Below, one piece after another: positions 178 to 64,000 of a DNA stretch of 64,000 nucleotides (position 1 is its first letter; the number at the start of each line of letters is the position of its first letter). Made by a program: the position numbers and the translations under genes. Origin of the DNA: Takakia lepidozioides. Taxonomy: Eukaryota; Plantae; Bryophyta. Location: assembly GCA_030704615.1 (NCBI GenBank), contig CM060731.1:72230001-72294000 (forward strand), given 5' to 3'. Under the pieces are notes generated by a model, which had not been told where the DNA came from, did not search any database, and saw nothing but the letters and a program-made list of their open reading frames with translations.

Positions 178-2174
178 TCAACTACCACATGTGGTGTGTA
201 CATGGTTGCAATCCAATACTGAAAGTGCTTGTATCACCTGGCCCTGCTCACGGTCCATCAGCTTGGAAAGACCAAAATCAGAAACTTTCGGGCAATATAC
301 ATCATTCAGCAAGATGTTCTGGGGCTTAATGTCCAAGTGAATGATCACCTCCTGACACCCCTGGTGTAAGTAGGCTAATCCTCGAGCAGTCCCCAATGCA
401 ATGTTGAACTAGGTCTCCCAATTTAGGAAGCACTCAGGTTCATCACTGAAAAGCAATTGATCAAGGGAACATTGCCCATACACCAACAAACAGTGTGGGC
501 CTTGACAGCAAAACCCTCTTAGTCGAACCAAGTTGACATGATGGATGCTGCCAATAGTGGCCACCTCTGCTCGAAACTCTTTATGCCCCTGTTTTGCGCT
601 CTCTAATCTCTTCACAGCAACTCTGGTACCATTGGGGAGAACACCCTCATACACTGCCCCAACCCCACCTTCTCCAAGATTTTGACTGAACCCTTTGGTA
701 GCTACATATAGTTCTTGGAGTGTAAATCTTGGAGGTAGTCCAGGTAGAGTGTCCAGAAAGGAATCATCCTCTGATTAACCCTGCACGCCCTGCACGACTT
801 TTCCATAAACGCCACCACAAGGTGGAAAGAATGATGAAGAAAGCATCAATGACCCCAGTTAAAATAAGTGCCACGGTCAAGGATGATCGCTTTACGGCTG
901 TCGCCAACATTATTCTGTCATTTGCAACCTTGAGGTATGCAATGGATGTCAAATCATCAACTGCCCGCAAAGTCATGAGTGCTGCATAGGAAAGGTAGCT
1001 GGATCCATTGTACACGAAAGCTGCAGTACAACTGCAGTTCTGCAAGCAACTCTTCTTGTTCTCATCTGGCGTCAAGGGGACAGGGGCATCAAGATAATAG
1101 TTGGGGAAGTACATCACACCCACCACCTCCATAAAGTGTTGTCCAACTGGGTCCCCACATGTCAGGTTGCGGGGTGGGATACAGCCCTTAGAGCTGTTAT
1201 TTACATATAAGTAACGGAAGGAATCACTGGTACTATTGCCTTGTGGGCAAGTACATTGATTAGATTGACAGATCTCATAAGACGCACATGATCAGGGAAA
1301 ACATCAAAATCAGTGGCTCTACTGCTAGTTGATGACCATGAATATGTTCTGAGGTTGCCGTCTGATTCCAGCCTTAGAATCCTTACAACGGGAGTGGTAT
1401 TTTGATGGGAATATGAGAGCGTATTGTCATTTTGGGCGGGGTTAAGTGCACACAGGTTGGAGATATTTCGTCAGAGAATGCCTCAGACCCACTAGAATTC
1501 TGGTACATAATGATCTGCCCATCAAACACAAATTCAAGGGATGTTGGGTACTTGCATGTGCGTAGTACGGAGTAGGAATCATTCCTACCAAAGTAACCCC
1601 AAGACCAATAGGGCAGTGGCGTAAGCTTGCTCCCTGCCTGCTGCACCTGCATAATACCGACCTGAAGGCTTTGCCCTCCTGCCAGACTGTCGATTGGGTA
1701 GTCAAAACGTAAGAGGTCTCGAGGCCTATCCAGTCCAATTGAAATTCCCTCAATTCTACACTGTACCCATTTCTGCTCGATTTCTGTACACATAGTAGGA
1801 TCCGGTTCCTTGAAATTCTATACCATGAAATGTTTTGGCCACAGATTGGTAGCGTTCAGTAGCACATGTACCTGCCAGGTTGTCCACTGTGCCGGGAAAG
1901 TTAAGAAAGGTTGCAAGAAGAAAGGCATCAGCAGTGTAGTTGAGGAAGCCAAAAGTGAAGGTGCCATCTTGGTCGAGTGAAAAAATTGACTCAACTCCCG
2001 GTCCTCCGGATCAAGGGTAACACTATTCTGACCAGCAGTGCCAAAGATTGATCCACTTGGGACTCGATACTTGGTTCCGCATGCTCTATATGTTAGTAAC
2101 AACAACGAGATAAGTACGATACAAAGACAATGCAACCCCTCACACAGGTAACAGCATTGACTATGCATCCGCAT
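178..2174 (-). pseudogene. S-domain (B-lectin/EGF/PAN) receptor-like kinase pseudogene, SD2-like
   Basis: Domains are collinear but split over several ORFs: signal peptide-like start (2174), lectin/SLG-like segment, PAN-like CLQNCSCTAAF and a TM helix (764-1132), kinase VAVKRL..EFRAEVATIGSIHHVNLVRLRGFC, then [21 protein letters not shown]. There are frameshifts and an in-frame TAG at 409-411, and similarity ends just after DFG (no APE or later subdomains). Confidence 0.9.
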
Positions 2175-2612
2175 TGCCGCTAGTTACTCAGGTATAGGAT
2201 ACTCGGCCATACATGAAGTTCGTCCAATAGACTCTTGATCGTATATCATGTGCAACTGGAAGTGTTCTGGAAACAGAGAGAAAGGAAAATTGAGATACCC
2301 AACTGGGCTGCGGGAACAAGTCCTTCAGCAGCAGTGATTCCAGCGCCCGCAGCCTGAGCAGGGGAGCTCCCCCCCTTGTTTGTGCTCCTGTTACTACTCC
2401 CGCTCCATTGTGTTATTGATTGCTTCCCCCAAGCAAGGGTGCGAGAGCAGGGGAGCATAAACAGAGGGGAGCACTAAGCGAACAGGAGAGTGGGAGAGCG
2501 GGAACAGGGAGCGACACAACGAGAGCAAAGGAGCAAAGGGTTGGGAACATGGAGCATGGTATGTATGAATACGTATACGAAATATTATACGTATAGGGTA
2601 ATGCCCCTTGTC

Positions 2613-2934: not shown

Positions 2935-5386
2935 ATGCGGGGCAATGGGAGTGGGAGGTTGGGAAGCCCCCGTTCGATTCGATGGCGGAAAGGCGAGCTC
3001 ATCGGAGCAGGTCAATCTCTTGCAGAGGTTTATGTTTTGCGCATTTGTTTTGGTGTTGCGTGCTGAAATACCGTTTCCTTGAGACCATTCACAGTATGCT
3101 ACTCTTAAAGTTACAATGCGCATGTAAAGGACCATACGATGATTGTCTGAAAGGAAGGTAGGCAGGCCACATTGACCTCATCAGAACAGGTATATTGGGT
3201 TTTCTCGAGAAGATCAGCCCGAGTATTTCCTACCAGGGTTTCAGGTGCAGCGGTCGTACTGCCAAATAAGTGCTCGGGTATTTCGCCTTTCGGAGAGATA
3301 CTAAGCATTTGAAACTTCTGGTAGGCGATGCCTGGTGTTTGGTCTCGGTTCCTTCACATTCCAGTGGACTTCTTGTTGCCAGGCATATTCTGTATGTATG
3401 GGTAAAACACGAAAGTGGTAAAATATTACAGGATTTCATTACATGATCCACATAATCAAGCCCTCGATGACAGTAGTGCAGAGTCTATGTAAGAAAATGC
3501 TCACACATTCTATTCGACAATGCACATTGTCCAGGCAGCAAGGTATATGAATCTAACCATTTGAAACTTAAAAGTGTGGTGCAGGTGCTTATGGTCGTGT
3601 TTATATGGGCCTCAATCTGGACTCGGGAGAGCTCATTGCGGTCAAGCAGGTTGGCATTGCAGTCAACAACAGCACAAAAGAGAGGGCGCGAGCGCACATG
3701 CAGGAGCTCGAAGAAGAAGTGAAGCTTCTGCAAAACCTTTCCCATCCGAACATTGTGCGCTACCTAGGGACTGCAAGAGAGGAGGAGGCCCTCAACATCT
3801 TCCTTGAATTTGTCTCAGGCGGGTCAATTTCTTCTCTCCTAGGCAAGTTCGGAGCATTTACAGAGCCTGTGATACGGATGTACACCCGGCAGCTGCTGCT
3901 GGGACTTGAATACCTTCATAGCAACCATATAATGCACCGCGACATCAAGGGGGCCAACATCCTCGTGGATAACAAGGGTTGTATCAAGCTTGCTGATTTT
4001 GGTGCTTCCAAAAAAGTAGTTGAGCTGGCAACAATTTCAGAAGCAAAATCCATGAAAGGTACACCCTACTGGATGGCCCCTGAGGTCATCCGGGGGACTG
4101 GCCATAACTGGCAGGCTGATATGTGGAGTGTGGGCTGCACTGTGATAGAAATGGCTACTGGAAAACCCCCATGGAGCCAGCAATTCCAAGAGGTGGCAGC
4201 CTTGTTCCATATTGGAACCACTAAATCACATCCTCCCATCCCTGAACATCTCTCCCTTCAAGGTAAGGATTTTCTTCTCAAATGCCTCCAGAGGGAGCCC
4301 AGGCTGAGGCCTAGTGCAACTGAGCTTTTAAAGCATCCCTTTGTGCTTGACTGGGAGACTCAAGGAGGGTTGGAGAGCTCTGAGGATTTGCTTCTTCCTT
4401 GTCAATCCGTTCAAATGGGGACTGGAATTGACAGTTACAATCCAATCTCAGAGCCCTCTTTCGTTGATGAAAGAAACTGGAGGTTGAATGGGACTGCAAA
4501 TGGAACGCTGTCTGCTGCACCCCTCGTCAAAAAGCTAGTGAGTCCGGAATCTGCGCACACTATGGAGAGTCACGGGGTGATGGGAAGGTCTTTACAGCAG
4601 GGGGATGAAATTGGGACGTGGAATGATAGTTTCAACCCTATCTCAGAGCCCTCTTTTGTTGATGGAAGCCACTGGATGTTGAACAGAACTGGAAATGCAG
4701 AATTGACTTCTGCACCCATTGAAAAAGAGCTAGCAACCCTGGGAGATGCACAAACTGTGGAGAGTCTTGGGGCAATGGGAACATCTTTACAGCAGGAGGA
4801 TGAAGATGAAGTTACAGAGTCAAAGATCCGTGCCTTCCTAGATGAGAAGGCTCTGGAGCTGAAGAGGCTACAAACACCATTGTATGAGGAGCTCTACAGT
4901 CTCTGGAATGAGAAAACTCAAACAGCTCTTGGACCTACAGAAAGCTTCATAGCACCTTTGAGCCCTGCAGTTGCCAGACCACCTGCTCCATGCAGCAGCA
5001 AATCACCCAGCAAAGGAAGTAGTTTGAGTGGGAGATCAGTGGGGATAAGAAGCAGCCAAGAGAGCGAGACTAGCGTGAGCTCTGGTAGCCCAAGTGGAAG
5101 TGGGGCGCCTACCAGTGTCAATTGCTCACCTCTTGTAGAGATTCCATCTCCCAGATTGAATGAATGGAGAGGGCTGCTTCATGATACCCAGCAGCCTTTA
5201 CCAAGCCCTAGCCTGAGTTCAAGTGAGCGCCAAAGGCTCTGGAAAGAGGAGCTTCAGCAAGAACTTCAAAAGAAACGGGAGGAAAAGCGTAAGCTTTCTC
5301 AACAGGTCTGCAATTCTCCATCCCCATCTAAGGAAAAGACCCTCCATCGATATGGCAGTCGCCTGGCTCCTATGCCCCAATTATAG
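2935..5386 (+). CDS. NPK1: NPK1/ANP-type MAP kinase kinase kinase; join(2935..3010,3585..5386)
   Basis: Exon 1 MRGNGSGRLGSPRSIRWRKGELIGAG splices via a GT..AG intron (3011-3584) in frame to AYGRVYMGLNLDSGELIAVKQV. Kinase motifs HRDIKGANILV, DFG and KGTPYWMAPE are present, as are ANP-type C-terminal motifs EVTESKIRAFLDEKA..LKRLQTPLYEE and SERQRLWKEEL. AATAAA at 5599. Confidence 0.92.
4418..4806 (+). repeat. In-frame 195-bp (65-aa) tandem duplication in the MAPKKK regulatory region
   Basis: ATCTCAGAGCCCTCT occurs at 4445 and 4640. The peptide DSYNPISEPSFVD...SLQQGDE recurs as DSFNPISEPSFVD...SLQQEDE. Confidence 0.92.
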
Positions 5387-15099: not shown

Positions 15100-16850
15100 A
15101 AGACTAGTCAGACCAAGGGCTTCTCTAAATTGTGTAAATTTATGTTTTCCTATAGGCTTAGCAATAATGTTTGCAAGTTGATTTTCGGAGGAAATATGGT
15201 CTAGATCTATTTCCCCACCTTCTCTCTAATAGAATGTTGTCTTCACATCAAGGTGAGATAGCTTCCATTTGTTCTTTATGGCAAGAGCAACCAAAGTACG
15301 TAAAGGTCCCCCATTTAACCACTGGTGCAAACGTCTCATCGTAATCTATTCCCTCCCTTTGCTCATAGCCGCGTGCCACCAGTCGAGCCTTGTGATCAGT
15401 CGAGCCTTGTGTTTGACATGAGCACCATCTGCAGCTTTCTTCTCCTTGTATATCCATTTAGAGGAAATGGGCCGCTTCCTTGGAGGCAAATCCACAAGTT
15501 CCCAAGTTCTGTATTCTTTAATAGAGTCCATCTCTTCCTGCATTGCCTTGCACCAATTGTGATCGCGAGCAGCTTCTTGAAAGCTGACAGTTTCCTCACC
15601 ATTCGAGATGGCAGCAACATAATCCGCAAGTCGACGTGGTAAACGTCACTCCCTTGCAGGTAGAATTCGTCATTCTCTTGGAGCTTCCTGTATAGCTTCA
15701 TTGTTTGATTCAGAGTCACATTGTGAGTGATTCGAGTTGACTGAGGAGGAGCTGGTCTCTTCACTTGAATTTTGGTCTGAGGACGATGAAGAGTTGGGTG
15801 AGGTACTTCCTGTCTCAGCTAGAGCCGGTGGGAGGTTAGGTGGTACAAGTGCAGGTTGTGATGCTTCACGAATAGAGATAATGTGCAAGCATTCAAGCTT
15901 TGGAGAAGTAGCAAACCCAAATTGAGATTCATCGAATCTCACATCTCGAGAAATTAAGATCTTCCTAGACTGGGGGTGATAGCATCATATCCCTTACTTT
16001 CCGTGTCGTAGCCAAGAAAGTTGGCACACTTGACAGCCCTTGCTTCTAGCTTTTTAACGTGTTCTTTGTCAACATGCACGTAAGCTAGGCTGCCAAAAAC
16101 TCTCAGATGTGGAGTTCGTGCCTGTGTGAGCTAGTGGGTTATTCCGTGTGAATATTCCAAGTAGGCTCTCCAGACAAGAATTCTCCTCTTCTGTCTCTAC
16201 GCAATTTTGCAATTGAATTCTTGAAATGCTTCTCCACCATTCTCTTGAAGTTCCGAAAACATGTGAAGGCTTCGCTTTTCTCCCTGAGGAAATATACCCA
16301 AGTAAATTTGTTGTAATCATCGATAAAAGTAATAAAATAACTCTTTCCACCTTGCGATGGACTGACAGTGGCCCACAGAGATCGGAATGAATGAGGCAGA
16401 GTGTGTAGTCGCCCGTGAAGTACTGGACTTGGGTACTCTTTCACGACGCTTCTTGCCTAGTTGGCAGCCTTCACAAGTAGTTCCAAGATTGGAATGTATG
16501 GAACTCCAGATGCCAATTGCTTGGTTGTGAGTTGATGGACTCCTTGGAAGGAGCCTTTTGTGCTTGTGATTGGCGATATTTGTTGCCCCACTTATTAACT
16601 CGTTATCTGATTCTTCGAGAGCCAAGATTTCGTCAGGGTTTGTCATCGTTTCTAGGCCGTTACGAGCATCTCTTATGCCTTTCCCTGAGATCCTACCCGA
16701 TTTATCAAAGATGAGACATTTCCTAGAATCAAATATAGCAATTTGTCCTTTGTCTGTTAGAGATCGTACAGAAATCAAATTCTTGTGTGGGAGCCATAAA
16801 GAGCAAGAATACCTTGCTGATTTCCTCACAGACGCCACAGCTCAGTGCAA
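15100..16850 (-). mobile_element. Ty1/copia LTR retrotransposon pol remnant (PR-IN-RT-RH order), internally deleted
   Basis: KNLISVRSL (post-protease), CEGCQLGK (pre-integrase Zn motif), SYFITFIDDYNKFTWVYFL (integrase), FLGY..ISRDVRFDES, AMQEEMDSI..TWELVDLP..KWIYK and [24 protein letters not shown] (RT). It then jumps to the RNase H end QLANIIAKP. Many frameshifts. Confidence 0.92.
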
Positions 16851-16939
16851 AGAAGCCTAGAGTCCAAGAGACACAAACCCTAGTTTGGCGTGGCTAAACC
16901 CCTTTGGAGAAATGGCTAAACTGCCATGAACGGCCATGG

Positions 16940-17765
16940 ATGGGGCTGTGACAGCTATGGCCTGTGGGGCTGTGACCCTGTGACCTGTGTAGGGCTGTGA
17001 CAGGCTGTGGCCTGTGGGGCTGTGATGGACTGTGACTAGCTGTGCCCTATGCGTTGTGATGGGCTGTGACCTGTGACCTGTGTAGGGCTGTGACAGGCTG
17101 TGACCTGTGGCCTGTGGGGCTGTGATGGACTGTGACTAGCTGTGCCCTATGCGCTGTGATGGGCTGTGACAGGCTGTGACCTATGGGCTGTGGGGCTGTG
17201 ATGGGCTGTGACGGACTGTGATAGGATGTGACAGGCTCTGATGGGCTGTGACAGGTTGTGACCTGTGCCCTCTGGGGCTGTGACGGACTGTGACAGGCTA
17301 TGATGGGCTGTGCCATGTGGCCTTTGGGGCTGTGACAGGCTGTGATCTGTGGCCTGTGGGGCTGTGATGGGCTATGCCATATGGCCTTTGGGGTTGTGAC
17401 AGACTGTGACCTGTGGCCTTTGGGGCTATGACGGGCTGTGATGGGCTGTGATGGACTATGACTGGCTGTGACCGGCTGTGATAGGTTGTGACGGACTGTG
17501 ACCTATGGCCTGTGGGGCTGTGATGGGCTGTGACAGGCTGTGATAGGCTGTGGCATGTGATGTTGTGACCTGTCACATGTGTAGGGCTGTGACCTGTGGC
17601 CTGTGGGGCTGTGATGGGCTGAGACGGACTGTGACTGGCAGTGACAGGCTGTGCCTTGTGGCCTTTGGGGCTGTAACGGGCTGTGATAGGCTGTGGCCTG
17701 TGGCGCTATGATGGGCTGTGGGGCTGTGGCATGTGTAGGGTTGTGACGGCTATGACCAGTGATCT
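16940..17765. repeat. Degenerate ~10-bp satellite (GGGCTGTGA[T/C], GACCTGTG) with higher-order duplication
   Basis: Dozens of CTGTGA/CTGTGG-centred units; block 16980-17053 is repeated almost exactly at 17073-17153. Confidence 0.95.
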
Positions 17766-18589
17766 GTGTGGGCCTGTGCTGGTCTGTGGTGGTACGTATT
17801 GACCTATGGACGACCTGTGCTGACTCGTGGAGGCATTGATGGACTGCCTGAAGACTGACATGTGGTCTTGAAGGCCAAATTTCGAAGCTCGTGGAGGGCG
17901 GTTTGAGGAGTATTTTCATGATATTCCCATGGTCATGCAAGTGAGAGAAGAGAGGAGAGGAAGAGTGTTGGGATGAGGGCATGCTAGGGTTAGGCATTGC
18001 TTTAGCTTCTTTTCCTCGTAGTTTTCCACCCTCTCATTAGACCAAGACATTTCCGTAGGTGGAGGCAAGAGTCAGTCCGGGTTTGGGCTGGGGTGTCCTT
18101 GCAGGAGCAACATCGTGGAGTTGTTTTTGGTGTGGGGGAGTTGTCGTTCTGATTTATTGTGTTTGGATCCCCTCCATACCTACATGCTTGACTGTGCACC
18201 ATGTTAGTTTTGTGTGGGCACTTGTTTTTATAGGTGATTGGTCCGGATTTAATCACCGGCCAGTCCTAGAGCATGTTGTCGATGGTGAGGCTGGGGTGAT
18301 GACCAGTCAGACCATCATTGTTTCTCTTTGTGGTGAGGTTGGAGGTGATGACCAGCCAACCATAGGAGTGCTTGCGGTGGATGCAGGTGCAGATGTAGGC
18401 TATGTTAGGAACTTAGTATTCCAAACCATAAGTCGCAACAGGTTATCTACCCGATTACCTTGTGGAGAGGGGGTAGGGACATGTTCATGACCGGTTGAGT
18501 GACAGTTTGTTAACACGGAGGTGCCACTAGTTGCTGGGGACAGTGCCGGTTCAAGCACTAGCGATACTAGTGGGTACACGAGATGAGGT

Positions 18590-21500
18590 GTGCGGTTTAG
18601 GCCACCTTTATCTCATGTGTCTTCTACGGAAGGTTCTGATTCGGATTGTGAATCAGGAGGACTCACACCGGCGGTGCAAGTTGTTTCCTTGCCATTGTTG
18701 TGGGACACAATGGAGGAGATGTATGGAGCTACCAAGGGGCCACAAAGGTACTCTGGGGCGGTGGGCACCATCGAGTTGGATGACTTTATCCAAGAGTTTG
18801 ATAGTTGGTGTGACTTGCAGCAAATGCGCAATCCACAAGGGGGAGCGCATGGAACTAAGTGAGCTGTCACTCTTGCGGGATCTCGTCGTTCCACCGGAAC
18901 TCTTTTTATGGCATGGAAGGGGCTATTTCAGCACCTTGAGGGGCCGCCCATGGATGATTATCATGAGTTCAGGCGGGGGCATGAGGTTGAGATCGAGGAG
19001 TAGAGGATGTACTGGTCACCCAACTATGTCTCTGTCACTATGGGCACTAGAGCCACGAGGGCAGTGGCTACACTTGCCGCTGCACCGACAACTTCAACAA
19101 GCAGCAGTGGAAGTAGTGGGACTGGTGGTACCGTAGCTACGACGTCTACCCAAGCCACTGCCGCACCAGCACCAGTATCTGTGCCAGCCTTCAACCCTAT
19201 TGTGGAGTTCTTTGAAGAGTTGAGAGGGAACTACGAGGACCCCATGTCAAGAAGGATTGCCCAAAGAGAGGCAAAGGGCCGGCACATGCACAGCCTGCAC
19301 AGTTGCAGTGTGGGCATTGTGGCAAACACGGGCATGGAGAGGCCCAGTGTTATGGTTTGCATCCTGAGTTGCGCCCAGGCCACTTCCAAGGGAACAATGG
19401 TGGCCGGGGGCGAGGTGGAGCAGCCCAGAGATGACGAGGTGCAGGCCAAGGGCAAGCTCAACATGGCCAAGGACGCGGAGGTCAGGGTGTTGACCAAGGC
19501 ATGGCCAACCGGCTTCAGCAGCTAGAGTACAGCTCAGGTGGTACCGGCTCCAAGGCCAGATGGTCCACCTCTTGCTCCTGAGGGAAGAGATATGGGAGGC
19601 ATAGGATTCATGTGCAGGGAAGCATTACCACTAGTGCAAATGGAGTCGGCGGCGGCAGTGACCCGAGGAGCAACACGAGTTCCTAAGCCACGAGGTGCAG
19701 AGGTGGAGTTGGATCCACAATGTGGGGAGGCAAGCCGTCAGGCTAGGTTTCCTCAGTCATTCACATTGGCGGAGACAGTGTCGACGCCATCCATGGCACC
19801 TAGTTCTCGCCCGACTGTTACTGAGGCGGAGGTTACTATGCCATTGGGGAGAGCCACACGGGCAGCACCACTACCTAGTGTTGCCAAGGCTATGGCAGCT
19901 AGTGTGCTACTGGGGGCGGCCACATCTGTGTGTCAAGCTCCATTGTTCTTGGCTACCATGGTTGCGACGCCGGGGATAAGACCAGCTGAGGTGTTCAGGC
20001 TGGCAGCTACACTCTATGAGAGTGAGGAGGTTACTTCATCTTCTGCGGAGATAGTGGGAGGTATAGTGACGGAGGCCGGATCCTCGGATGTGAGGGTCAA
20101 GACTGCCACCGCGGCGCCATGACAAGCTGCAGCTGTCAGCTAGGCCAGCCATTGAGCGCGCCATGGTGACACCTGGGGTTGTCATGTTAGATAACCATGA
20201 TGGCATTTTCTGTTTGAATGGACCGGCAGGCAAGAGATACCGGCCACTGCGCGTCTTGTTGGACTCGGGAACTCAGCCATTGATGTTGGGCAGAGCTTTG
20301 ATTGCAGGCTTGGGCCTCACGGAGGCGGATATGGAGCCTTGTCATTTCCAGATACAGACATCTCTGGGAGGATCGGAGCAGGCTCGAGGCATGACACGGC
20401 GTGAGTTGGCTATCAGACTACGGCCGGATCACCCTACAGATGGCTCAGTGATGCGAGCCAAGGTCATTGTGACAGACGCGGTCTTGTATGATGTACTGGT
20501 TTGGTGGGGTTTAGGGTTTAGGGTTGCGCAGTGTTGTACCCCATGGGCTTGGGAGGAGTCAGCTTCCTATAGATCCGATGGCAGTCAGGGGAGGGCCGGC
20601 GTGTGCAGCTCCCTGTGACGTTCATAGGAGTGCGGTTGCCCAGCGAGGCAAGATGCCGACACTAGCAGCATTCACAGCTGTAGTGACTTGGCTTGGAGAG
20701 TTGCTAGAGGGCAACGTTCATTCAGAGGATGTGTCACCTCCAGCAGAGCAGGATGACATGTATGGTATGGCGGAGTTGTCTGTCATGATTGCTCAGATTC
20801 CATTGTACGAGCAAGGATTTGCAGCAGGTTGTTGATCGACGGGTGCAACAAACATGGGTAGAGGCTTTTGTACCATCAGGAGAGGAAGTGAGTGCGGGGA
20901 TTACACCAGGACCACCTCAGTTGTCTCCATTGGACACCACACCTATTGTGTGGCAGTATCCGGATGAAGGCATTTGTCTTCTGAACTTGTTTGGCGGGAT
21001 CAGCACCGGATTGGCTGTTGTGTTACAAGCAGGTGTACGAGTTCGGCGTTACCTATATGTGGAGAGGGATGAGACTACACGACGCATCTCCCTACATCAT
21101 ATTGCTCAGTTGGTGCAGCAGTACCCTGAGTTGTTGCCGGTGTCTGCAGTTCGTGGATATCAGCAGGCCTTGCCAGCAGACATTTCGTTGCTGGGGGCGC
21201 AGGATTTGGAGCGGGTTGGCTTAATTGATCTGGTAGTGGCAGGTTGGCCCTGCCAAGAGCATTCATCAGCTGGACATAGCAATGGATCGCAAGACTCGAG
21301 GTCGGGTCTGTTTTGGGAGATGGTGCGGGTTTTGCGCCACTTGCAGCTTCATCAAGCTGTATCTCCAGCATACATCTTGGAGAATGTGCCACTGATGGAC
21401 GATTCTCGGGCCAGGGTGATGGCCAATGTGCATCAAGTCCGGTCGTGGCTTGGCTCAACAGTGTTGCTGGATGCAGCTACAGTGGGGTCACGGGCTCATC

Positions 21501-23780
21501 GTCCACGACTATGGTGGACTAACTTGATGCCACCCGCACTGCTCATGTGTGCATTTGATGGGGTGCAGTGGCCAGCACACCTCACAGTGGATAGCATTTT
21601 GGACACAGGGAGGTAGTCTCAACGTGTGAGACACGATGACCATTCGCCTTTGGCAGTGGTCAACAAAGTGGGTCAACCACGAGCAACACTACCTACACTG
21701 CTCAGCTTCCTAGGATCGCATGCTTTCCGGGATAGTGGACCTGGCCTCCTCTGGGATGCTCAGCTACAGCAGTTAGTGGAGCCTAATGCCGACGAGCGAA
21801 AACGGGCTATGGGTTTTTCCACTGGGACCACGGCGGTGCCTTCTCTTTCTAAGGCATCACGTCGTCAGGTGTTGGGGCAAGCAATGGATCTCAATTGCTT
21901 GACCTGGATTATCAGCTTGGCTATGGCTGAGCAGCTCAGAGTACGGAGTATACTTCCCTCGATGGTCTCTCTGCCTACCGAGATGGTACAGGCAGCGAGT
22001 GGGGGCGAGCATGTGAGGACCACAGGGTGCAGACATCCATGGCACACATGGGAGGTGCTCGAGGTTCAGAGGGAGTTGGCAGCCAAGGTGGCGGTGATGG
22101 ATGCGGTTGGGGATTTTTCTCGGGTTGAGGAAGTCCTCGAGGATGAGATGATGGGGCAGGATGAGGCCTTGTCATTGACTGAGCAGGTATGGAATACTGC
22201 TCAAGATGTTGCAACATAACAACCACTGGACGCGTCCTCTACCTCTAAGCCCACTAGACTTAAGGTTGCAGTTACGGAGGATAATTAGGAACTGACATTG
22301 GACCCATTGTCACCGGAGGAGAGAGACGACGTATACGGGGGTTCCTGAGGGCTTACATGAATTGCTTTGCCTTCAGTTTGAAGAACTTGGGAGCACTGAA
22401 GGGTGAAGAGATTCGTATTGAGTTGGCTACTGACACACCAATTTTTTGGAGACCCTATAGATACAATGACATGGAGAGGTCTTTGATTCAGATAATGACT
22501 CAAGATCTCTGGAAGGCTGGTTTGATGGAGCTCTCTGGTGGAGAGTATGCTTCAGTCACAGTGATGCCAACCAAGAAGGATATCTATGGCAATTGGACGA
22601 AGAGACGTATGTGCGGTGATTACCGGCCTGTAAATCGTCAGATCAAGTCTGATAAGTATGTCATGCCAACACCAGAGGAGATCTTTGATGTCATCGGGCA
22701 TGCTAAGGTCTTTAGCACTTTGGATTTACGATCCGGATATCACCAGTTGCCGATCAAGGAGACGGACAAGCAGAAGACGACATTCTGGGGGATCAATGAG
22801 CACGGCAAGGATTGCCTATATAGGTGGCGGTTCTTACCATTTGGGCTTAAGAACGCTCCTGCAGAGTTTCAGAGAGTTATGGATAGGATTCTAGCAGGGG
22901 TGGACTTTGCTCGGTGCTACATAGATGACATCATCATCTTTATTACTACGGTGGAGGAGCATGAGAGACATCTTCAGGTGGTATTACAGCGCTTGAGAGC
23001 GCACGGATTGAAGTTGCATCCGGGGAAGTGCAAGTTTTTCCACTGGGGGTACAGCAGACTAAGGTAGAGGCCATTGCACAAATTCCACGCCCCACGGATG
23101 TGAGCCAAGTTCGAGCTTTCATGGGGTTAGCAAACTACTATAGACGGTTTGTCAAGGGATTTAGTGCTATCACAAAGGCTCTAACCAAGCTGACCAAGGT
23201 GGACTAGGAGTGGCAGTGGGAAGATGAGCAAGAATGAGTTTTTCAAGAGCTCAAGGTGAGGTTGACCTCGGCGCCTATCCTGAGACGATCTATCAGGGGG
23301 CGTCCCTTTCAGCTGCGGCTTGGAGCGGTGCTCACACAGGTGGATGATTAGGGAAGAGAGTTTGTAGTGGATTATGCTAGCCGCTCGAACAACGCTGCAG
23401 AGGCTAAGTACAGCTCATATGAAGGAGAGTGCTTAGCTGTAGTGTGGGCCGTGGCAGACTTCAGGTGCTATCTATATGGCAATCTCTTCACCCTTGTCAC
23501 GGATCATCAGCCACTCAAGTGGTTGATGGAGTCAGACAAGCTTACAGGGAAGCTTGCACGGTGGGCACTCATACTCTAGGAATATGACTTTCAGGTTGTG
23601 CATCAACCGGGTTTGGTCAATCGGGATGCGGATGGATTGAGTCGCAATCCATGCACGAGCCAGCAGGATGACACTGGAGCTCGGTGGCATGGTGAGACGG
23701 ACAAGAAGATGGTGCCGGGAAGGCACGCATCTGCATTTTTGTGTATCTTGGCATCGGGAGGTCAGGTTGGATATGCTCCT
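18590..23780 (+). mobile_element. Ty3/gypsy LTR retrotransposon remnant: gag(CCHC)-PR-DNMT-RT-RNaseH, truncated before integrase
   Basis: Gag-like segment with zinc knuckle CGHCGKHGHGEAQC (19309-19350); aspartic protease LLDSGT (20262); RT MCGDYRPVN..STLDLRSGYHQ..LPFGLKNAPAEFQR..YIDD (22918-22929); RNase H YASRS..YSSYEGECLAVVWAV..TDHQPL..DADGLSR. Confidence 0.93.
20970..21930 (+). pseudogene. C5-cytosine DNA methyltransferase domain embedded in gypsy pol (one premature TAG)
   Basis: Motifs in order: I LNLFGGISTG (F at 20990), II YVERD, III PADI, IV DLVVAGWPCQEHS (catalytic PC 21248-21253), V DSRSGLF, VI YILENV (21380), VII LDAA, VIII RAHRPRLWWTN (21500), IX ERKRAMGF (21794), X RRQVLGQAMD (21860). 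ORFs 20789 and 21626 share a frame and are separated by a TAG at 21614-21616. Confidence 0.92.
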
Positions 23781-24726
23781 TGGCTCCTTGATGCTCTCTA
23801 AGACAAGACTAAGCACTCCACAGCCTTTGTCAAGCTCCTGAAACCCTAAGGCTTACATTTCCAGCCACAAGACATTCCTCTTGTGGTGCAAGAGCTCTTC
23901 TTCCAAGCTCTGAAACCCTAGGTGCACATTCCATGGCCTTGCCGCACTTCTTAGCTCCTGTTCCAGCCCTGCTCTTGCCATGGCAAGAGCCCTCATACCG
24001 CTGGAGTTTCAGATTGAAACCCCCAACTCAACATAGCCGCAAATGCATTGGCTTGCATACAAGAGAAATCAACCATCTCTCTTCACTTATACCTCCTTAT
24101 GAGCTTGAAGTTGGAGCTCCTGATAACTGTGACTTGCATCTAACACCCTCACAGCTCCACACTCACCACACTTGGCTGCCATAGCGTTGAGCTATGCAAC
24201 ACTGCTCTTCAACACAGGCTGCCCGCCTCTATATCCATTGCAAACCTGAAACATGTTCGCCATCGCACCCTATCCGCTTTGGATAGGCTCATGCACTGAT
24301 CCCTGCACTCTAAGCTGAGTTGTTTCTCATCTGAAAACATACAAGTGCTAACAACTAACTCGTATCTAGAACTCATAGATACGAGCTGATCTTTCTCGAG
24401 TGATAAAGAAAAAGAATACAAGCACAAGCTCATGCTGAAGCATAAACTCATGCATATATAATCTCATCACTCAAATACAAGTCAAGCCAAGTGCACCCCA
24501 CGCCATGGGGAATCCACACTACGGCGCCATAGCTAGGCGCGGTGAGGCTCAACTCGAGAAAGATGAGCCTCCCGCGCTTGCCGTGAAAATAACCACTCCA
24601 GGGCCTAAATCTGCCTTGGCCCCTGGATTGACACTTGGGCCAATCCCAAATGTCAATATGTGAAAGCTAGCTATTTCCTAGCTAGTTTCACACTAGTGGT
24701 GAAATAACTTGACACCATAGTGGTTA

Positions 24727-51924: not shown

Positions 51925-54900
51925 CACACACATATCCATTTTGGTTGACATCAACTAAAGCTAGACGGACATAGGGTCTTTCTGCGTTAATAGGGTCTAC
52001 ATGGTGTGTAAATATAATTTTAACATATAGAAGGAGCTTTGCAAGGGAGAAACCTAAAAATACAAAAAGAAACCCCAATTTCGCTGACGAAACTCAAGTT
52101 CGGTTGCGAAACCCAATTTTCGGGTGGTTATTGGGGATGTTGTAAACATGTGTTTGTAAAAAATCATATATTGGGTTTTTAATGCCACATTGTTTAAGCT
52201 TGCTGACCTTTGAGTTCTGGCAGAAATACTTGTGGTTGTGCTCAAGTGAGTTCAACTTTAAACAATCAGTTTTGTAGGTTTATTTGTGGTGAGGACGGTT
52301 TTCATGATAATTTTGTATTTTTTTGGCGTGAGCGCCATTTGGTTTTGCTATGGTATGTTCTTAGGAATATACAAAATATGCCTATCTCCTCACGTAAGCA
52401 AGCTCACGCCAACGTGAGCACCTCCAACACTACATCTTCTTCTTCTTGGTTTGCCTCTAAAACGACATAATCTGCCTCAAAAATCCTGAGGTTGGATAGC
52501 GTATGAACAAGCTCAAGCTAGTGGGCATGAGCACAAAGGTATATTTCAAATATTCCAAAAAATTTTGGAGAATATGCATTTGCAGAACCAAAATGCGCTT
52601 ACGTGGTAAGAAATACGAAACTATCTGAAAATTGTGCTCACGCGAAAAAATTCATGGAATTAATCGTCCAAAGTTTAACTTGCATGAGCACAAAGACCCA
52701 CAAATATATCTGCCAGAACTCAAAGATCAGCACACATAAACAATGTGTCATTTGGTAACATTGTGTATAGAACATCCCCACCACCCAAAAACATAGGTTT
52801 TGCACGTGAAATGCAAACGGTTTAGGAGCGAAACTTGGATTTGTCGACGAAATTGGAGTTCGGTTTTGGTTTTGGTTTTTTTTTAAAGGTTTCTGCCTTT
52901 CAAGCTCGTTCTATACGTTTAAGAGTATATTTAGACACCATGGATACCCTATTCACGCAAAAAGACATACATATCATATCGCTGACATACATATCACTCC
53001 TATAACCGTAGATCCTGCTCATGCGGCGATTTTTTTTGTGCTCATGCTGTCCTCACACGACCAACCCCCAAAAATCCTTGGTGTATACTTAAAACCCATA
53101 CCCGACCCGCTTCATTTCACTGACCTAGGTAGGGAGTATAGCCAGTTTTGGAATCACTAGGTGGATCCGAGTTCATTGTTGAAATGAACTACGAGTCCGG
53201 GTCCAGGTATTTGAGGGATTGGTATGGAGTGAGCAAAGCGTGAGCACAAAAGAATTACCGCATAAGCAAGATCCACGGTTATACGGGTGATATGTAAATA
53301 CATATAATAGACGAACATAGGGTTTTTTTGCGTCAATATGGCTCTATGGTGTCTAAATATAATCTTAAACATATGATAGAATGAGCTTGAAAGGAAGAAA
53401 CCTTTTAATTTCGCAGACGAAAAGAAGTTTCGTTTTAAAAAATCCAAGTTTCGTTGCCGAAACCCAAGTTTCCCTGGCAAAAACCTTTGCATTTCACTAC
53501 GAAACCCATTTTTGGGGTGGTTCTTGGGGATGTTCTAAACACAATGTACCAAATGCCACATTGTTTACGTTTTCTGACAGAAATATTTATGAGTCTTTGT
53601 GCTTATGTGGGTTGAGCTTTGGACGATTAATTTCATGCATTTTTTTGCATGGTTTTTAGATAGTTTCATATTTCTTACTGCGTGAGCGCATTTGATTTCG
53701 CCACGCATATTTTCCAGAACCTTTTGGAATATTCGAAATATGCTTTTGTGTTCACGCCCGCTGGCGTGAGCCTACTTGCACGCTACCCAACCTTGGGTAT
53801 TTGGTGATGTTGTAGGTTCGGGTCCGGGAGATCAGCGCACGTAAACAATGTGTTAAGAACCACCCAAAAAAAGGTTTTGCCAGCGAAACTAGGATTTCGT
53901 CAGCGAAATTTGGGGTTTGGTTTTGGTTTTTGTTTTGCTTTTAAGGTTTCTCCTTTTCAAGCTCCTTCTATATGTTTAACATCTTATTTAAACACCATGG
54001 AGACCCTACTAACGCAGAAAGACCATATGTCCGTCTATTATATGTATTTCTGTTGACATACATATCACCCCTATAATCGTGGATCGTGCTCACGTGACGA
54101 TTCTTTTGTGCTCACGCTATGCTCACGCTGTACCAACCCCCCTTATTTGTTCATCTTTTTGTGGCAACTCCACAAAACTGTATTGTTCGTTCCCGTGGCA
54201 ATTCAAATCGGATGTCAAGTGTGGGTTCTTTAGTTTGGCATGCCTGGGTTTACCTTCGATGAGGTCCTAATGAGGTAACTAGGTAGAATGTGTTTCGCAA
54301 TTGTAAGAGAGATGTTGAGGCCTTCATTAAAATTAAAAGATGGGCCTTATGGGAGGCGGCGGACCTATCTCATATGATGAACTAAGTTATAACTGGCAGG
54401 ATTTCATTTCTGCTGCGTCTATGGCGTTGGGCTTCTTAGTCCGTTGCGTTGCTGTAAGCAGGATGTGGTTACCGTGAATATGTCTCTTTTTGGAACATGC
54501 TGCTTTCACAACCCAATCTTTTAAAATGAAATGCCCAAGTTGGTTGTGTTTCGGAATGCGATCCTCTTTGCCCACTATGTAGTGGTGCAACATAGAGATG
54601 TTTTTCACGGTTGCTGCTTTGAAGGGGGATTGGTATGGCGTGAGCACAACGTGAGCACCAAAAATACGTCGCATTGGCAGGATCCACGGTTATGGGGTGA
54701 TATGTATGCCAGTGGAAATACATATAATGGACGGACATTGGGTCTTTCTGCGTTAATAGGGTCTAAATGATGTCTAAATATTATTTTAAACATATAGAAG
54801 GAGCTTGGATGGGATAAACCTAACATTTAATCTTTAAAAAAAACCCAATTTCGCCCAAGATGCGTTTGCGTTTCGCTGGCGAAATCCATTTTTTTGGGTG

Positions 54901-55130
54901 GTTCTTGGGGATGTTCTACACACATTGTTTACTTTCGCTGACCTTTGAGTTCTGGCAGATATATTTGTGGGCCTTTGTGCTCACGTGACTTAGGCTTTGG
55001 ACTTAATTTCGTAAGTTTTTTCGCGTGAGTACGGTTTTCAGATAGTTTCGTATTTTTTTTTTCGCATGAACACATTTTGGTTTCGCTATCGCATGATTCT
55101 TGGGGAATATGTGGAATATGCCTCTGTGCT
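51925..55130. repeat. Cluster of five copies of a ~500-600 bp MITE-like family in alternating orientation
   Basis: Copies at about 51925-52430(+), 52487-53072(-), 53212-53800(+), 53830-54142(-, partial) and 54622-55130(+). Shared blocks: gacggacatagggtctttctgcgttaatagggtct, gctgacctttgagttctggcaga, and repeated GCGTGAGC(AC). Both ends resemble GGTTGG(G)TA..GCGT (imperfect TIR). Confidence 0.88.
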
Positions 55131-57213: not shown

Positions 57214-57620
57214 TTGGGTGGGAGCATGCAACGTCCAAGTTGGCGAAGGCAGCCACGTTCTGCCCTAGTCCCTCTCCCCTCGCTCTCTACAGACAGCTGC
57301 TGCAGCAGCTCACGCTGCAGCCACAGACAGTACGTTTATGGCAATGCCAGAAACTAAATATTATGCTTTATTCTTTGTCACCACAGCCCTAAGCAAAGGT
57401 TTGAGGGATTGCAGAGTCGAATCACAGAAAGGCAGTTAAGGGACGAGAAGTGGTGGCGGAGAAGTATCAAATTTAGGCAATAAGAGGTGAACTTGTTCTG
57501 TAGTCATTGAATTTATGTTTGTTGTTTGTCACAGACTCGGTGCTGCTGTGAAACAGTATTGTTCTTTCTGTATCTTCATTGGCCGTGCTGAAAGTAGTTT
57601 AGGGTGTGTAGCTGTCTGGA

Positions 57621-60600
57621 ATGGCGTCGCAGGGAAAGAGAAAGAGGGACTTGGAGTCCAATGGTATTGCGAATGGGGATTCACGGCCGTCAGAAAGCAG
57701 AGATGCCAAGAAGGCAGCAACTCAAGAGGTGGACCTCGCATTGCTGGAAGCTCTCGAGAATTCTAGTGAAGGTGTTGAAGTGCTTGATGTGCGGGGACTC
57801 AAAAAGATAGTCCTGGCTTTTGAGAGAAAACTGCGGGACAACCTTGAGGCACGTATGAAGTATGCGGAACAGCCTGACAGATTTATGGAGTCGGAAGTGG
57901 ATTTGGATGAGGAAGTGAAGAAAATGCATGCATTGGCTGCCAACCCAGATCTCTACCCCGAACTTATTAGGTTGAATGCAGTGCCTTCTATCATTGGCTT
58001 GTTGAGCCATGATAACAATGATATCGCCATCGGTGTTGTCAACCTCCTGAATGATCTCACAGATGAGGATGTCATCGGGGAGAGTGATGAGCCAGCTTCG
58101 GTTTTGGTGGAGGCTTTAATTGATAACAATGCCTTGGAGCTTCTGGTGCAAAATCTATCGCGAATGGACGAGTCTGAGACTGATGAAGCCGCCGCTGTCT
58201 TCAATACTCTTGCAATAGTTGAAAACATGATAGAAGTGATGCCAGCAGTGGCTGAGCTCGTCTGTGAAAGGACCAAGTTGCTGAAATGGCTTCTGAACAG
58301 GATAAAAGTACGGGAATTCGACAGCAATAAGCTATATGCAAGTGAAATTCTCGCCATTCTGCTACAAAATAGCTCGTTGAATCAAAAGCGCCTGGGACAA
58401 CTCAATGGCGTGGACACTATCCTTCAGTCCGTTGCCTTCTACAAGTCAAGGGATCCGAAGACAAGTGAAGAAGAAGAGATGCTTGAGAATCTCTTTGATT
58501 GCTTGTGTAGTGTTGTGATGCCGGTTGAAAACAAGGATCGATTTGTTAAGGCTGAGGGAGTGGAGCTTATGATCATCATCATGAAGCACAAGAGGCTGGC
58601 CTATACGTCTGCAATGAAGGCTTTGGACTTTGCAACGACTCGGTGGTCTGCGGCCTGTGAACGATTTGTTGATGTTTTAGGGTTGAAAACACTTTTTGCG
58701 GCCTTTATGGGAAAGGTGATTCCCTTCATGCTCCTCAGTTGCATGAGTGAAATTGGTTACCAATCTGTCTTATTTGCTGCCCAGGTTTTTTTTCTTAAGC
58801 TAACCCAAAATTTGCAGACATTACTTGGAGGTTTCCTGTCTCACAGCCTTCAATTTATGATGACATCAGTGGGAGGTGTCTTCTCCTTCTATTCAACTGG
58901 AAAAAAGAAAGAGAGGAGGGTTAAGGACTGTTGGGGTCAACTAATATACTTAAACCCCCCTCGTTCTCTATTGACTGCATGACGTCTAGTTATATTGTAC
59001 TGTTCAGATGACGTCTGATGAGCCAGTTGGCTCTGGTTTGGGTGTTCAGGTCCCAGTAAAATCAAAGAGTCGGGTTGGCAGGTCTCAGGAGGACGTAGAG
59101 GAGCGCGTTATCTCCTTGATCGCCTCTTTATTTGGTAAGGACTGCTTCCTTCTCGCATGCTGCCACTGGCACTCTTGGATTCCCCACTCTTGGGTTCAGG
59201 AGTGCATGAATGTCCCACCTTGCCAAGAGAAGAAGTGGGCAATTTAAGAAAAGAGAGACACTCAGGGGGCCCAGGTGTGGGGCAGGGGAAGAGTTGTATC
59301 ACTATGAGTTTTGGACTTACGTATCTCATTGATTTGGGCATGGCTTTGGTAGGTGGTTTATCGCGGGGGTCTAGAAGAGAGCGCCTTCTGAACAAGTTTG
59401 CAGAGATTGAGTTTGAAAAGATCGATCGACTGATGGAGCTGTATGTGAGGTATGTGTCATAAAAACTACCACATAGTTCCTGGAGCCATGCCAGGGATTT
59501 GGTTACCTTCCAGGTAGCTGAATGCTAGCTGCTGACCCATCCCACACAATGGGAAAGTTATACACGTAGAGTGTTTCTACCTTTTCTGGAGGTTTGAGCT
59601 CCTACAAGCTACATCGATATAATCAGGGCCTCGGTCTTATGAAATGACCCAATGGCTTCCTGTGTAAGATTATAACGCTATCTCACATTGTGAATGGCAG
59701 ATACTCAGATCGTGTGAAAGCAGAATCAAAGCGCCTTGATGGACAGCAGTTTGAGGGTGTGGAGGTTGGGTCTTTCCTTTTTTTGAATCCTGTTTTGTTT
59801 CCTTTCGCTTCATGGATGGTGTTCTAGTCGTCAATCATCTGCCAGGCAGACTTTTCCTTGAGCTTTACTTGTGACCCAGTGCATGATCATGAATTTTATT
59901 GCTTAGGTTAAAGTGCATGGACACGTCCAGTTCTGCAAAGCTAATTAAGCTGGAAGGAAATGCCCATACACAGCTTGTAATATTTGGAAATAAGAAATCC
60001 GTAGGTTAGTCCCTTGTCCGCAAAATCAACAGCAATAAGTATTCACTTGTTTGGTAATTTTTCTTTTTCTTTTTGTTTGTGGATGCAGATGGATGAGGAA
60101 GAGAAGTATTTAGCTAAAATGGAAGCAGGCCTGTATACCCTGCAGGTAAGCCCTTCTTCTCTGCATGTGTCTTGCCACTCACCTGTAATCAGCAGCGAAG
60201 TGATATCTCTATTCATATTAGGAGCAAGGTGATCATGTTAGTACCCATGCTTCATCCATGAGTGGGTTTGGTCAGGGCGCAGGACCATAGTCTGATGCCC
60301 TTGGTTCAGTTTGTCCTTTGAAATTCAATGTGCTTAATTGCTTCTCATGGTAAGGTGTATTAAGTCTTGCAATCGTTTTACTGCGCAGCTAAAGGAGCAT
60401 TTTTTAGAAATGTATGCTAGTAATGTGCTTTAGTTGTTAAAAATGAAGCCCTGGGAAAGTATTCAACCGGAGTTACAGTTTCGGTACTTGTAGGTGATTC
60501 TCAAATTTTTGCTAAGTGTGGGAGGTTCTGTACTGTGCAACGTAACTTGTAGTGTGTTAAGAGATGGTGGAATGCTGCCATGGGACAACCTTGCCGTTTT

Positions 60601-63281: not shown

Positions 63282-64000
63282 GGAGGTTGGGTAGCTGCGT
63301 AAGTAGGCTCACGCCAGCAGGCGTGAGCACAAAGGCATATTCTGAATATTCGAAAGATTCTGGAGAATATGCAATTGTGAAACCAAAATGCGCTCATGCG
63401 GTAAGAAATACGAAACTATCTGAAAACCGTGCTTATCTGCCAAAACTCAAAGGTCAGCACACGTAGTTTTCGCCAGCGAGACTTGTATTTTTGCCAACGA
63501 AACTTGGGTTTCGTCGGCAAAATTGGGATTTGGTTTTTCTTTTTAAATTAGTTTTTAAGGTTTCTCCCTTTCAAGCTCATTCTATATGTTTAAGATTATA
63601 TTTAGACACCATGGAGACCCTAATAACGCAGAAAGACCCTATGTCCGTCTATTATATATATTTCCGCTGTCATACATATGACCCCTATAACCGTGGATCT
63701 TTTTTGTGCTCACGCGATACCAAGTAGACTCTGCCTTCTAGTTAAAATTACTAGCTCAAGAGGTTGGGTAACTGCTCACACCAACGAACCTGAACACAGA
63801 GGCATATTCTGCATATTCCCCAAGAATACTTATAATATGCAAAAGCGAAACCAAAATGTGCTCATACGAAAAAATGCGAAACTATTTGAGAACCGTGCTC
63901 ACGCGACAAAACTTATGAAATTAATCGTCCAAAGCTTTAACTCACGTGAGCACAAAAATCCACAAATATGTCTCCCAGACTTCTCAGGTCAGCACACATA
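63282..64000 (-). repeat. Two further copies of the 51.9-55.1 kb MITE-like family (second runs off the window)
   Basis: Starts gaggttgggta at about 63283 and about 63759; shared blocks include aagaaatacgaaactatctgaaaa, ttagacaccatggagaccct and aattaatcgtccaaag. Confidence 0.88.

Follow-up and report, generated by a model that had tools for sequence, protein, structure and literature searches.

A DNMT3-like methyltransferase ahead of a conserved, likely leaky stop codon in a Ty3/Gypsy retrotransposon family of Takakia lepidozioides

A DNMT3-type C5-cytosine DNA methyltransferase (DNMT) carried by a Ty3/Gypsy retrotransposon is already known from Klebsormidium nitens (KnitGypsy-Dnmt3; de Mendoza 2018, PMC5890265). 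The question of why retrotransposons retain a host silencing enzyme dates from 2018, and the carriers known so far do not lend themselves easily to manipulation. The main text of the 2018 report describes the kind in K. nitens only and does not contain the word 'Marchantia'; PMC12344493 cites the same Klebsormidium report, and a 2026 preprint mentions 'streptophytes (Gypsy-DNMT3)' (bioRxiv 10.64898/2026.05.21.726589). DNA methyltransferases and PHD fingers go unmentioned in the main text of a Ty3/Gypsy survey (PMC6317226), and the available parts of PMC7466625, PMC11982613 and bioRxiv 2021.11.30.470311 and 2022.06.16.496473 add no information about DNMTs carried by land-plant elements. In the literature searched we found neither land-plant copies nor a leaky stop described; most subscription papers lie outside that scope, as do figures and preprint supplements, which may include bryophyte sequences. 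Here we analyse 64,000 nt of the Takakia lepidozioides genome (contig CM060731.1, positions 72,230,001 to 72,294,000; the whole stretch is called the window), in which a decayed Ty3/Gypsy copy with a DNMT domain occupies 16798..24714 on the + strand. What is added to the known kind is the land-plant copies and a conserved stop codon between DNMT and reverse transcriptase (RT).

Our overall reading, held with moderate confidence, is that the window holds a dead member of a high-copy family encoding Gag, protease (PR) and a DNMT3-like enzyme, then a conserved, likely leaky stop, then RT, RNase H (RH), integrase (IN) and a PHD finger, with the DNMT packaged in amounts near those of Gag and likely methylating the element's own cDNA. 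As the preliminary description of this DNA had stated, the DNMT motifs (I-X, in unrearranged order) lie on one strand between the DSG protease and RT; they occupy one intronless frame (20960..21946, + strand) with a single internal stop at 21614-21616. The Pfam check it proposed gave a DNA_methylase match with E 1.2e-13 (open reading frame (ORF) 20789-21613), and the catalytic Cys codon is 21251-21253. Its DNMT3-like assignment also held. The best solved relative by sequence was DNMT3A (E 5.7e-10, vs 1.8e-4 for HhaI and 2.1e-3 for DRM2), and a Foldseek search with the AlphaFold model of the stop-free DNMT domain from a relative, metagenome locus L002 (pLDDT 93.8), had DNMT3A, DNMT3B or DNMT3C in every row among the matches listed (best TM 0.73). 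A DNMT3-like fold is predicted for the element enzyme; matches in the ESM Atlas were generic DNA_methylase clusters only. Of 93 DNMT domains, 86 keep the catalytic Cys and 91 the Glu of the ENV motif. The DNMT of live copies is quite likely to be catalytically active. The recognition loop of DNMT3A has an Arg that reads CpG. This Arg is absent from the loop of the element DNMT aligned with it by eye, so the target context is not predictable.

The DNMT is a family-wide component of an abundant retrotransposon family and is not private to the window's copy. Within the host's own family, summed contig depth (run X1 from the same organism; 71,571 contig pieces aligned to the window), which is not copy number, was 0.70-1.05 million over the DNMT vs 0.64-0.94 million over RT. 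A comparison of the dN/dS type, also proposed beforehand, set the window against moss subfamily S1: over 18 pairs the DNMT gave pN 0.207 and pS 0.744 (proportions of nonsynonymous and synonymous differences), and over 16 pairs RT gave 0.175 and 0.745. Purifying selection on the DNMT is on par with that on RT. Being family-wide and selected like RT, the DNMT can be neither a single chance insertion nor a processed host gene. The broader alternative, in which either of these (the host gene being a DNMT3) sits in a dead element whose stop is mere decay, is accordingly given next to no probability; heavy decay and the lack of introns would suit it, but mosses, liverworts, Closterium and Mesostigma all have the DNMT in this position and order, it is selected as RT is, and the stop is family-wide. 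Host DNMT3s of non-flowering streptophytes carry a C-terminal DUF3444 (PMC6453930), whereas Pfam found no DUF3444 among the 12 window ORFs scanned, and the window DNMT lacks the exon-intron structure of host plant DNMT3s. The preliminary description had named three fatal cases, a family without the DNMT, insertion boundaries of the DNMT's own and a recent processed host copy; none holds.

The stop codon lies at 22217..22219 and, with the CAA-CCA that follows (to 22225), forms the likely programmed readthrough site. The DNMT C-terminus is present in 41 close metagenome loci, 32 of which cover the stop site; the other nine are interrupted by an insertion (L005, L006), a contig end (L007, L009, L024, L041, L070) or a deletion (L020, L045). 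An in-frame stop was found in 31 of the 32 (24 TAG, 7 TAA). The sole exception, L025, has TAC, probably by chance; this codon specifies Tyr, the residue inserted upon readthrough of the tobacco mosaic virus (TMV) type. CAA directly follows 30 of the 31 stops; in three subfamilies CCA or CTA completes the 3' hexamer, and most loci of the fourth, S1, have CAACCC. The window, L002, L021, L039 and L040 match CAR-YYA exactly, with the ORF beyond the stop in the same frame. As a background, CARYY follows 180 of the 21,569 TAG/TAA triplets in the related loci. When eight in-frame copies were compared, the stop column was the only one of 732 with eight stops, the next best having two. In the host's family TAG makes up 185,166 of 187,664 in depth (98.7%) at this site; the window itself has TAA.

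The preliminary description had taken the linkers to be broken by decay. This holds for the stops at 21614 and 22286, which are not common to the host family (among 40 of 122 difference rows listed), and not for 22217-22219, where a family-wide stop means that decay is not its cause. The nearly intact L002 has 957 + 438 codons, the conserved stop and then 766 codons to its contig end, i.e. two stops in ~2,160 codons, one of them the conserved one. Proteins of Marchantia and Calypogeia, with further database proteins, end 77-99 residues past motif X, at the place of the window's TAA at 22217; a deeper protein group ends 134-163 residues past that motif. The 10 rows with the stop group as a single clade in the RT tree (support 99/98). 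Since the conserved stop follows the DNMT, ORF1 encodes Gag-PR-DNMT. The earlier view of a DNMT made within the polyprotein thus stands for an ancestral, selected part; the domain is the last of ORF1 and not simply 'inside pol'.

Readthrough of the stop is the likely route to RT-RH-IN-PHD. TMV readthrough is directed by CAR-YYA placed directly after the stop, a signal that works in plants, TAA included, and gave 6-10% readthrough in stable Arabidopsis lines (PMC2754532). Splicing of the stop, re-initiation or an internal promoter could supply RT-RH-IN instead, the DNMT still being made with Gag, and splicing has a precedent in the Ogre intron between GAG-PROT and RT (PMC6317226); gene models of Marchantia and Sphagnum also skip the stop region. 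We consider this unlikely. The reading frame is kept across the stop despite linkers of differing length (75 or 90 codons before it by subfamily, 16 after it in S1 and S2). None of the three joints crossing the stop, of six joints, has GT..AG ends, while leader joints in the same run do (17940>18387 and 17940>18366 in X1 contigs, among the 15 of 271 joints listed), which disfavours splicing, and one contig of run X10, which is RNA by guess only, spans the stop unspliced. As for re-initiation, S1 offers an ATG three codons past the stop, but in subfamily S2 the first in-frame ATG comes at codon 48.

Several points weigh against readthrough, against the supply of DNMT that it would give or against methylation by the enzyme. 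The evidence for the stop from liverworts and from the further database proteins consists of protein ends, not DNA. The 32 loci include at least four near-identical pairs and, with the window, represent only four subfamilies; these are near synonymous saturation where measured. In seven junctions no significant RNA structure was found 3' of the stop (z -0.5 to -2.2). The commonest moss subfamily, S1, has CAA-CCC, one base off the consensus, besides its nearby ATG, and in Tca2 the flanks of a similar stop were insufficient for readthrough (PMC2194720). Sister lineages (e.g. P0057, P0058, P0208, L060) have an open frame from DNMT into RT, so Gag-level DNMT supply is not needed by all; these open-junction elements do not form one clade in the RT tree. 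Finally, the Klebsormidium Gypsy DNMT produced no methylation in yeast, which its authors treat as inconclusive (PMC5890265).

If readthrough operates, most ribosomes would stop after Gag-PR-DNMT and a few percent would continue into RT-RH-IN-PHD. The DNMT would then be made in Gag-level amounts, far above those of the replication enzymes, and would be packaged in the particle, where the protease would free the domains; we regard this co-packaging and release as probable. The enzyme would methylate element cDNA before or at integration, and it is an evenly balanced matter whether this cDNA is its main substrate, with new insertions arriving already marked. A rather unlikely alternative is that the DNMT, abundant as it is, works chiefly in trans on chromatin (its own long terminal repeats (LTRs), rival elements, host DNA) or serves as a non-catalytic helper that binds DNA or RNA. 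Gag-level synthesis would exceed the need of one cDNA, the integrase of relatives has a PHD reader, and the Klebsormidium homolog was inactive when expressed alone in yeast (PMC5890265); yet fusion to Gag-PR points to the particle, the conserved catalytic motifs argue against a purely structural role, and the methylome of K. nitens is ordinary and plant-like (PMC5890265). The conserved stop also hints at dosage: DNMT output seems to be set at about the level of Gag, and that of RT-integrase kept low.

The window's order (PR-DNMT-RT) recurs widely. Among 49 longer homologs, 17 are named Marchantia, one Calypogeia and two Sphagnum; 20 further proteins from the same half of the DNMT tree include seven of Closterium and one of Mesostigma. 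We found 80 related metagenome loci, and nine close loci extend through integrase to a PHD finger. The window has Gag-PR-RT-RH, and in relatives H2C2, rve and PHD follow RH, which is the Ty3/Gypsy order. An alternative order, RT-RH-DNMT-IN-PHD, was found in chlorophytes (Hariotina, Haematococcus, Cymbomonas) and in 18 of 23 very long matches; 146 new cluster representatives comprised 58 with this order, 18 with the window's order and 70 fragments. The two orders split with support 98 in a DNMT tree built by a quick method from 50 rows. Both the DNMT and the RT tree are unrooted, contain no host DNMT3 or bacterial enzyme and leave out near-duplicate proteins; without an outgroup, neither the direction of transfer nor a single origin can be inferred from them. 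A viral-contig scan gave no relatives among 37 pattern matches. No Klebsormidium-named sequence appeared among the homolog-search matches, most of which carry no species name. Tentatively, one DNMT3-bearing Gypsy lineage may be as old as green plants, with RT-RH-DNMT-IN in chlorophytes and PR-DNMT-RT in streptophytes; one branch could have gained the leaky stop, making the DNMT a Gag-level cargo with many copies per particle, so that new insertions would arrive methylated and the element enzyme would feed the host methylome in bryophytes with large families.

The same metagenome collection holds what is, in most of L050-L080, a second DNMT-bearing Gypsy family, whose DNMT is 31-40% identical to the window's and whose DNMT-RT junction is open; it shows the split repeats described below. 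In two loci other Gypsy copies are inserted within DNMT domains (L022:2676-5141 and L068:4055-8790, both minus strand), and the insert in L068 itself carries a DNMT.

The element is larger than the 18590..23780 first assigned to it, extending from ~16.8 kb to 24714 by family contig depth (run X1), which sums to 1e5-1e6 inside the element vs 52-105 in the outer flank bins. The left end (16798) is placed to about 10 nt either way; at the right edge one X10 contig departs from the window sequence at 24715. All parts lie on the + strand. The 5' leader contains a TGTGA-type tandem array with a ~10-bp unit, common to other copies (16935..17800), and a likely GT..AG intron (17941..18386, second acceptor at 18365), to which the leader joints attest; some genomic copies lack this intron, as expected if copied from spliced RNA. 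Decayed Gag, identified by homology to Marchantia ORF1 (18710..19380), has a CCHC knuckle at 19309-19350, a 65-nt insertion (18839-18903) and a loss of ~150 codons near 19235. It is followed by a Gag-protease linker (19637..20053, homologous to Marchantia ORF1 residues 436-565) and the aspartic protease (20133..20573; DSG at 20262-20270, a frameshift near its end). Past the DNMT, the 90-codon ORF1 coding tail (21947..22216) has an HPWxxW motif found across subfamilies. Beyond the stop site come a short linker and RT (22226..23043; YIDD at 22918, a private stop and frameshift near 22286-22291), then the RT C-terminus with RNase H (23034..23771, by Pfam and Marchantia homology) and a high-copy 3' non-coding segment terminating in ..TGACA, delimited by contig depth (23772..24714).

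Pfam matched four of the 12 ORFs: besides DNA_methylase, these were RVT_1 (E 6.8e-30), RT_RNaseH (E 4.1e-25) and Asp_protease_2, a weak match below the cut-off (E 0.027). Five blocks at 45-54% identity link region 18710-22057 in colinear order to the Marchantia ORF Mp4g09160 (1,278 aa), and 22297-23750 is likewise colinear with RT-RH models of Marchantia. The copy is dead, as previously described, with stops and frameshifts, and neither the Pfam scan nor the contig comparison found an integrase in it; other copies continue into different sequence after 23771, which indicates that integrase-PHD was deleted internally. CpG depletion was considered as a DNMT-specific signal and rejected, the observed/expected ratio being similar in the DNMT (0.56), in other element parts (0.49-0.60) and window-wide (0.46).

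Self-BLAST between both ends found no terminal repeats in the window's copy. Among 27 self-compared related loci, A-coding-B-A-B repeats are complete in four (L030, L062, L063, L072), and two more have the 3' half. L030 and L062 have TG..CA ends, 4-bp duplications and split repeats in place of twin LTRs, with a G-rich tract that precedes the first B; at the B|A joint two inverted ends lie 2 nt apart. This joint (L030:10238-10805; L062:10605-11298) resembles a circle junction, with joined integrase attachment ends ..CACGACA-NN-TGTCAT... Elements that combine an integrase with permuted repeats may use a circular or tandem intermediate in replication. In the window, CCAT at 16794-16797 and again at 24715-24718 is either a target-site duplication or chance. 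A decayed Ty1/Copia fragment of single-copy depth adjoins the left end (15248-16790, minus strand; RVT_2 E 9.9e-9, integrase motif); the Copia frame is not resumed in the flank past 24718, and simple nesting in Copia is unsupported.

Elsewhere in the window are host genes for a receptor-like kinase (412-2183, minus strand), a kinase in one 604-codon frame (3572-5383) and CTNNBL1 (57612-58979), together with a long gene with very long coiled-coil exons (~25870-49170) that we take from its motifs to be kinesin-like. In a tree, CTNNBL1 of the window groups with one further protein and with its Physcomitrium and Ceratodon counterparts (support 91/93, short of the threshold), as is likely for a moss host. 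A cluster of direct and inverted repeats (51947-55058 and 63301-64000) resembles nested non-autonomous DNA transposons.

The transformable liverwort Marchantia polymorpha has long open Gag-PR-DNMT frames (Mp4g09160, Mp8g17980), which makes activity, sequence context and substrate testable. Bryophyte annotations contain DNMT 'genes' that are in fact ORF1s of such elements; their predicted introns were likely drawn so as to skip the stop. For four Marchantia gene identifiers no mention was found in the literature searched.

The stop itself has parallels in other elements and viruses. In SIRE1 (pol/env), Tca2 and murine leukaemia virus (MuLV; both gag/pol) and in TMV (UAG-CAR-YYA), an in-frame stop parts an abundant from a rare product (PMC2194720; PMC2754532), and TMV has the same type of 3' hexamer (PMC2754532). 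Unlike in SIRE1, Tca2 and MuLV (PMC2194720), the stop here follows the protease and an accessory enzyme, falling between DNMT and RT. Ogre likewise has a regulated break between GAG-PROT and RT, but achieves it by splicing over a long spacer (PMC6317226). TatI and TatII elements carry an extra domain, an RNase H (aRH), between PROT and RT, the place held here by the DNMT (PMC6317226); the preliminary statement that gypsy elements have nothing between PR and RT was therefore too strong.

As carriers of a C5 methyltransferase, SymbioDIRS-Dnmt3 and SymbioLINE-Dnmt resemble the Takakia family and differ in belonging to other retroelement orders; SymbioDIRS DNMT3 domains performed de novo CG methylation in yeast (PMC5890265). 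The EpiLTRs of Cymbomonas and Euglena are also retrotransposons bearing such an enzyme, but theirs is a DNMT4-related domain with DAM and a chromodomain (bioRxiv 10.64898/2026.05.21.726589). The available text of these reports describes no leaky stop for any of the three. The closest match is KnitGypsy-Dnmt3, which likewise has a DNMT3-type domain without introns or rearranged motifs as part of a Ty3/Gypsy polyprotein, and in which the catalytic residues are conserved and the DNMT is under purifying selection (PMC5890265). Its DIRS-like A-coding-B-A-B layout (PMC5890265) recurs in L030, L062, L063 and L072, not in the window's copy. The Takakia family differs in being a high-copy family of a land plant. 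In KnitGypsy-Dnmt3 the DNMT shares an ORF with RT (PMC5890265), whereas here it is in the same frame and ends ORF1 before the conserved stop; a single ORF with RT and RNase H, absent from the stop subfamily, occurs in P0057, P0058, P0208 and L060. Lacking this feature, the family is not a strict member of KnitGypsy-Dnmt3 and is filed as a variant of that kind. The acquisition of the enzyme was placed 'in the K. nitens lineage' (PMC5890265), while the relatives found here span green plants.

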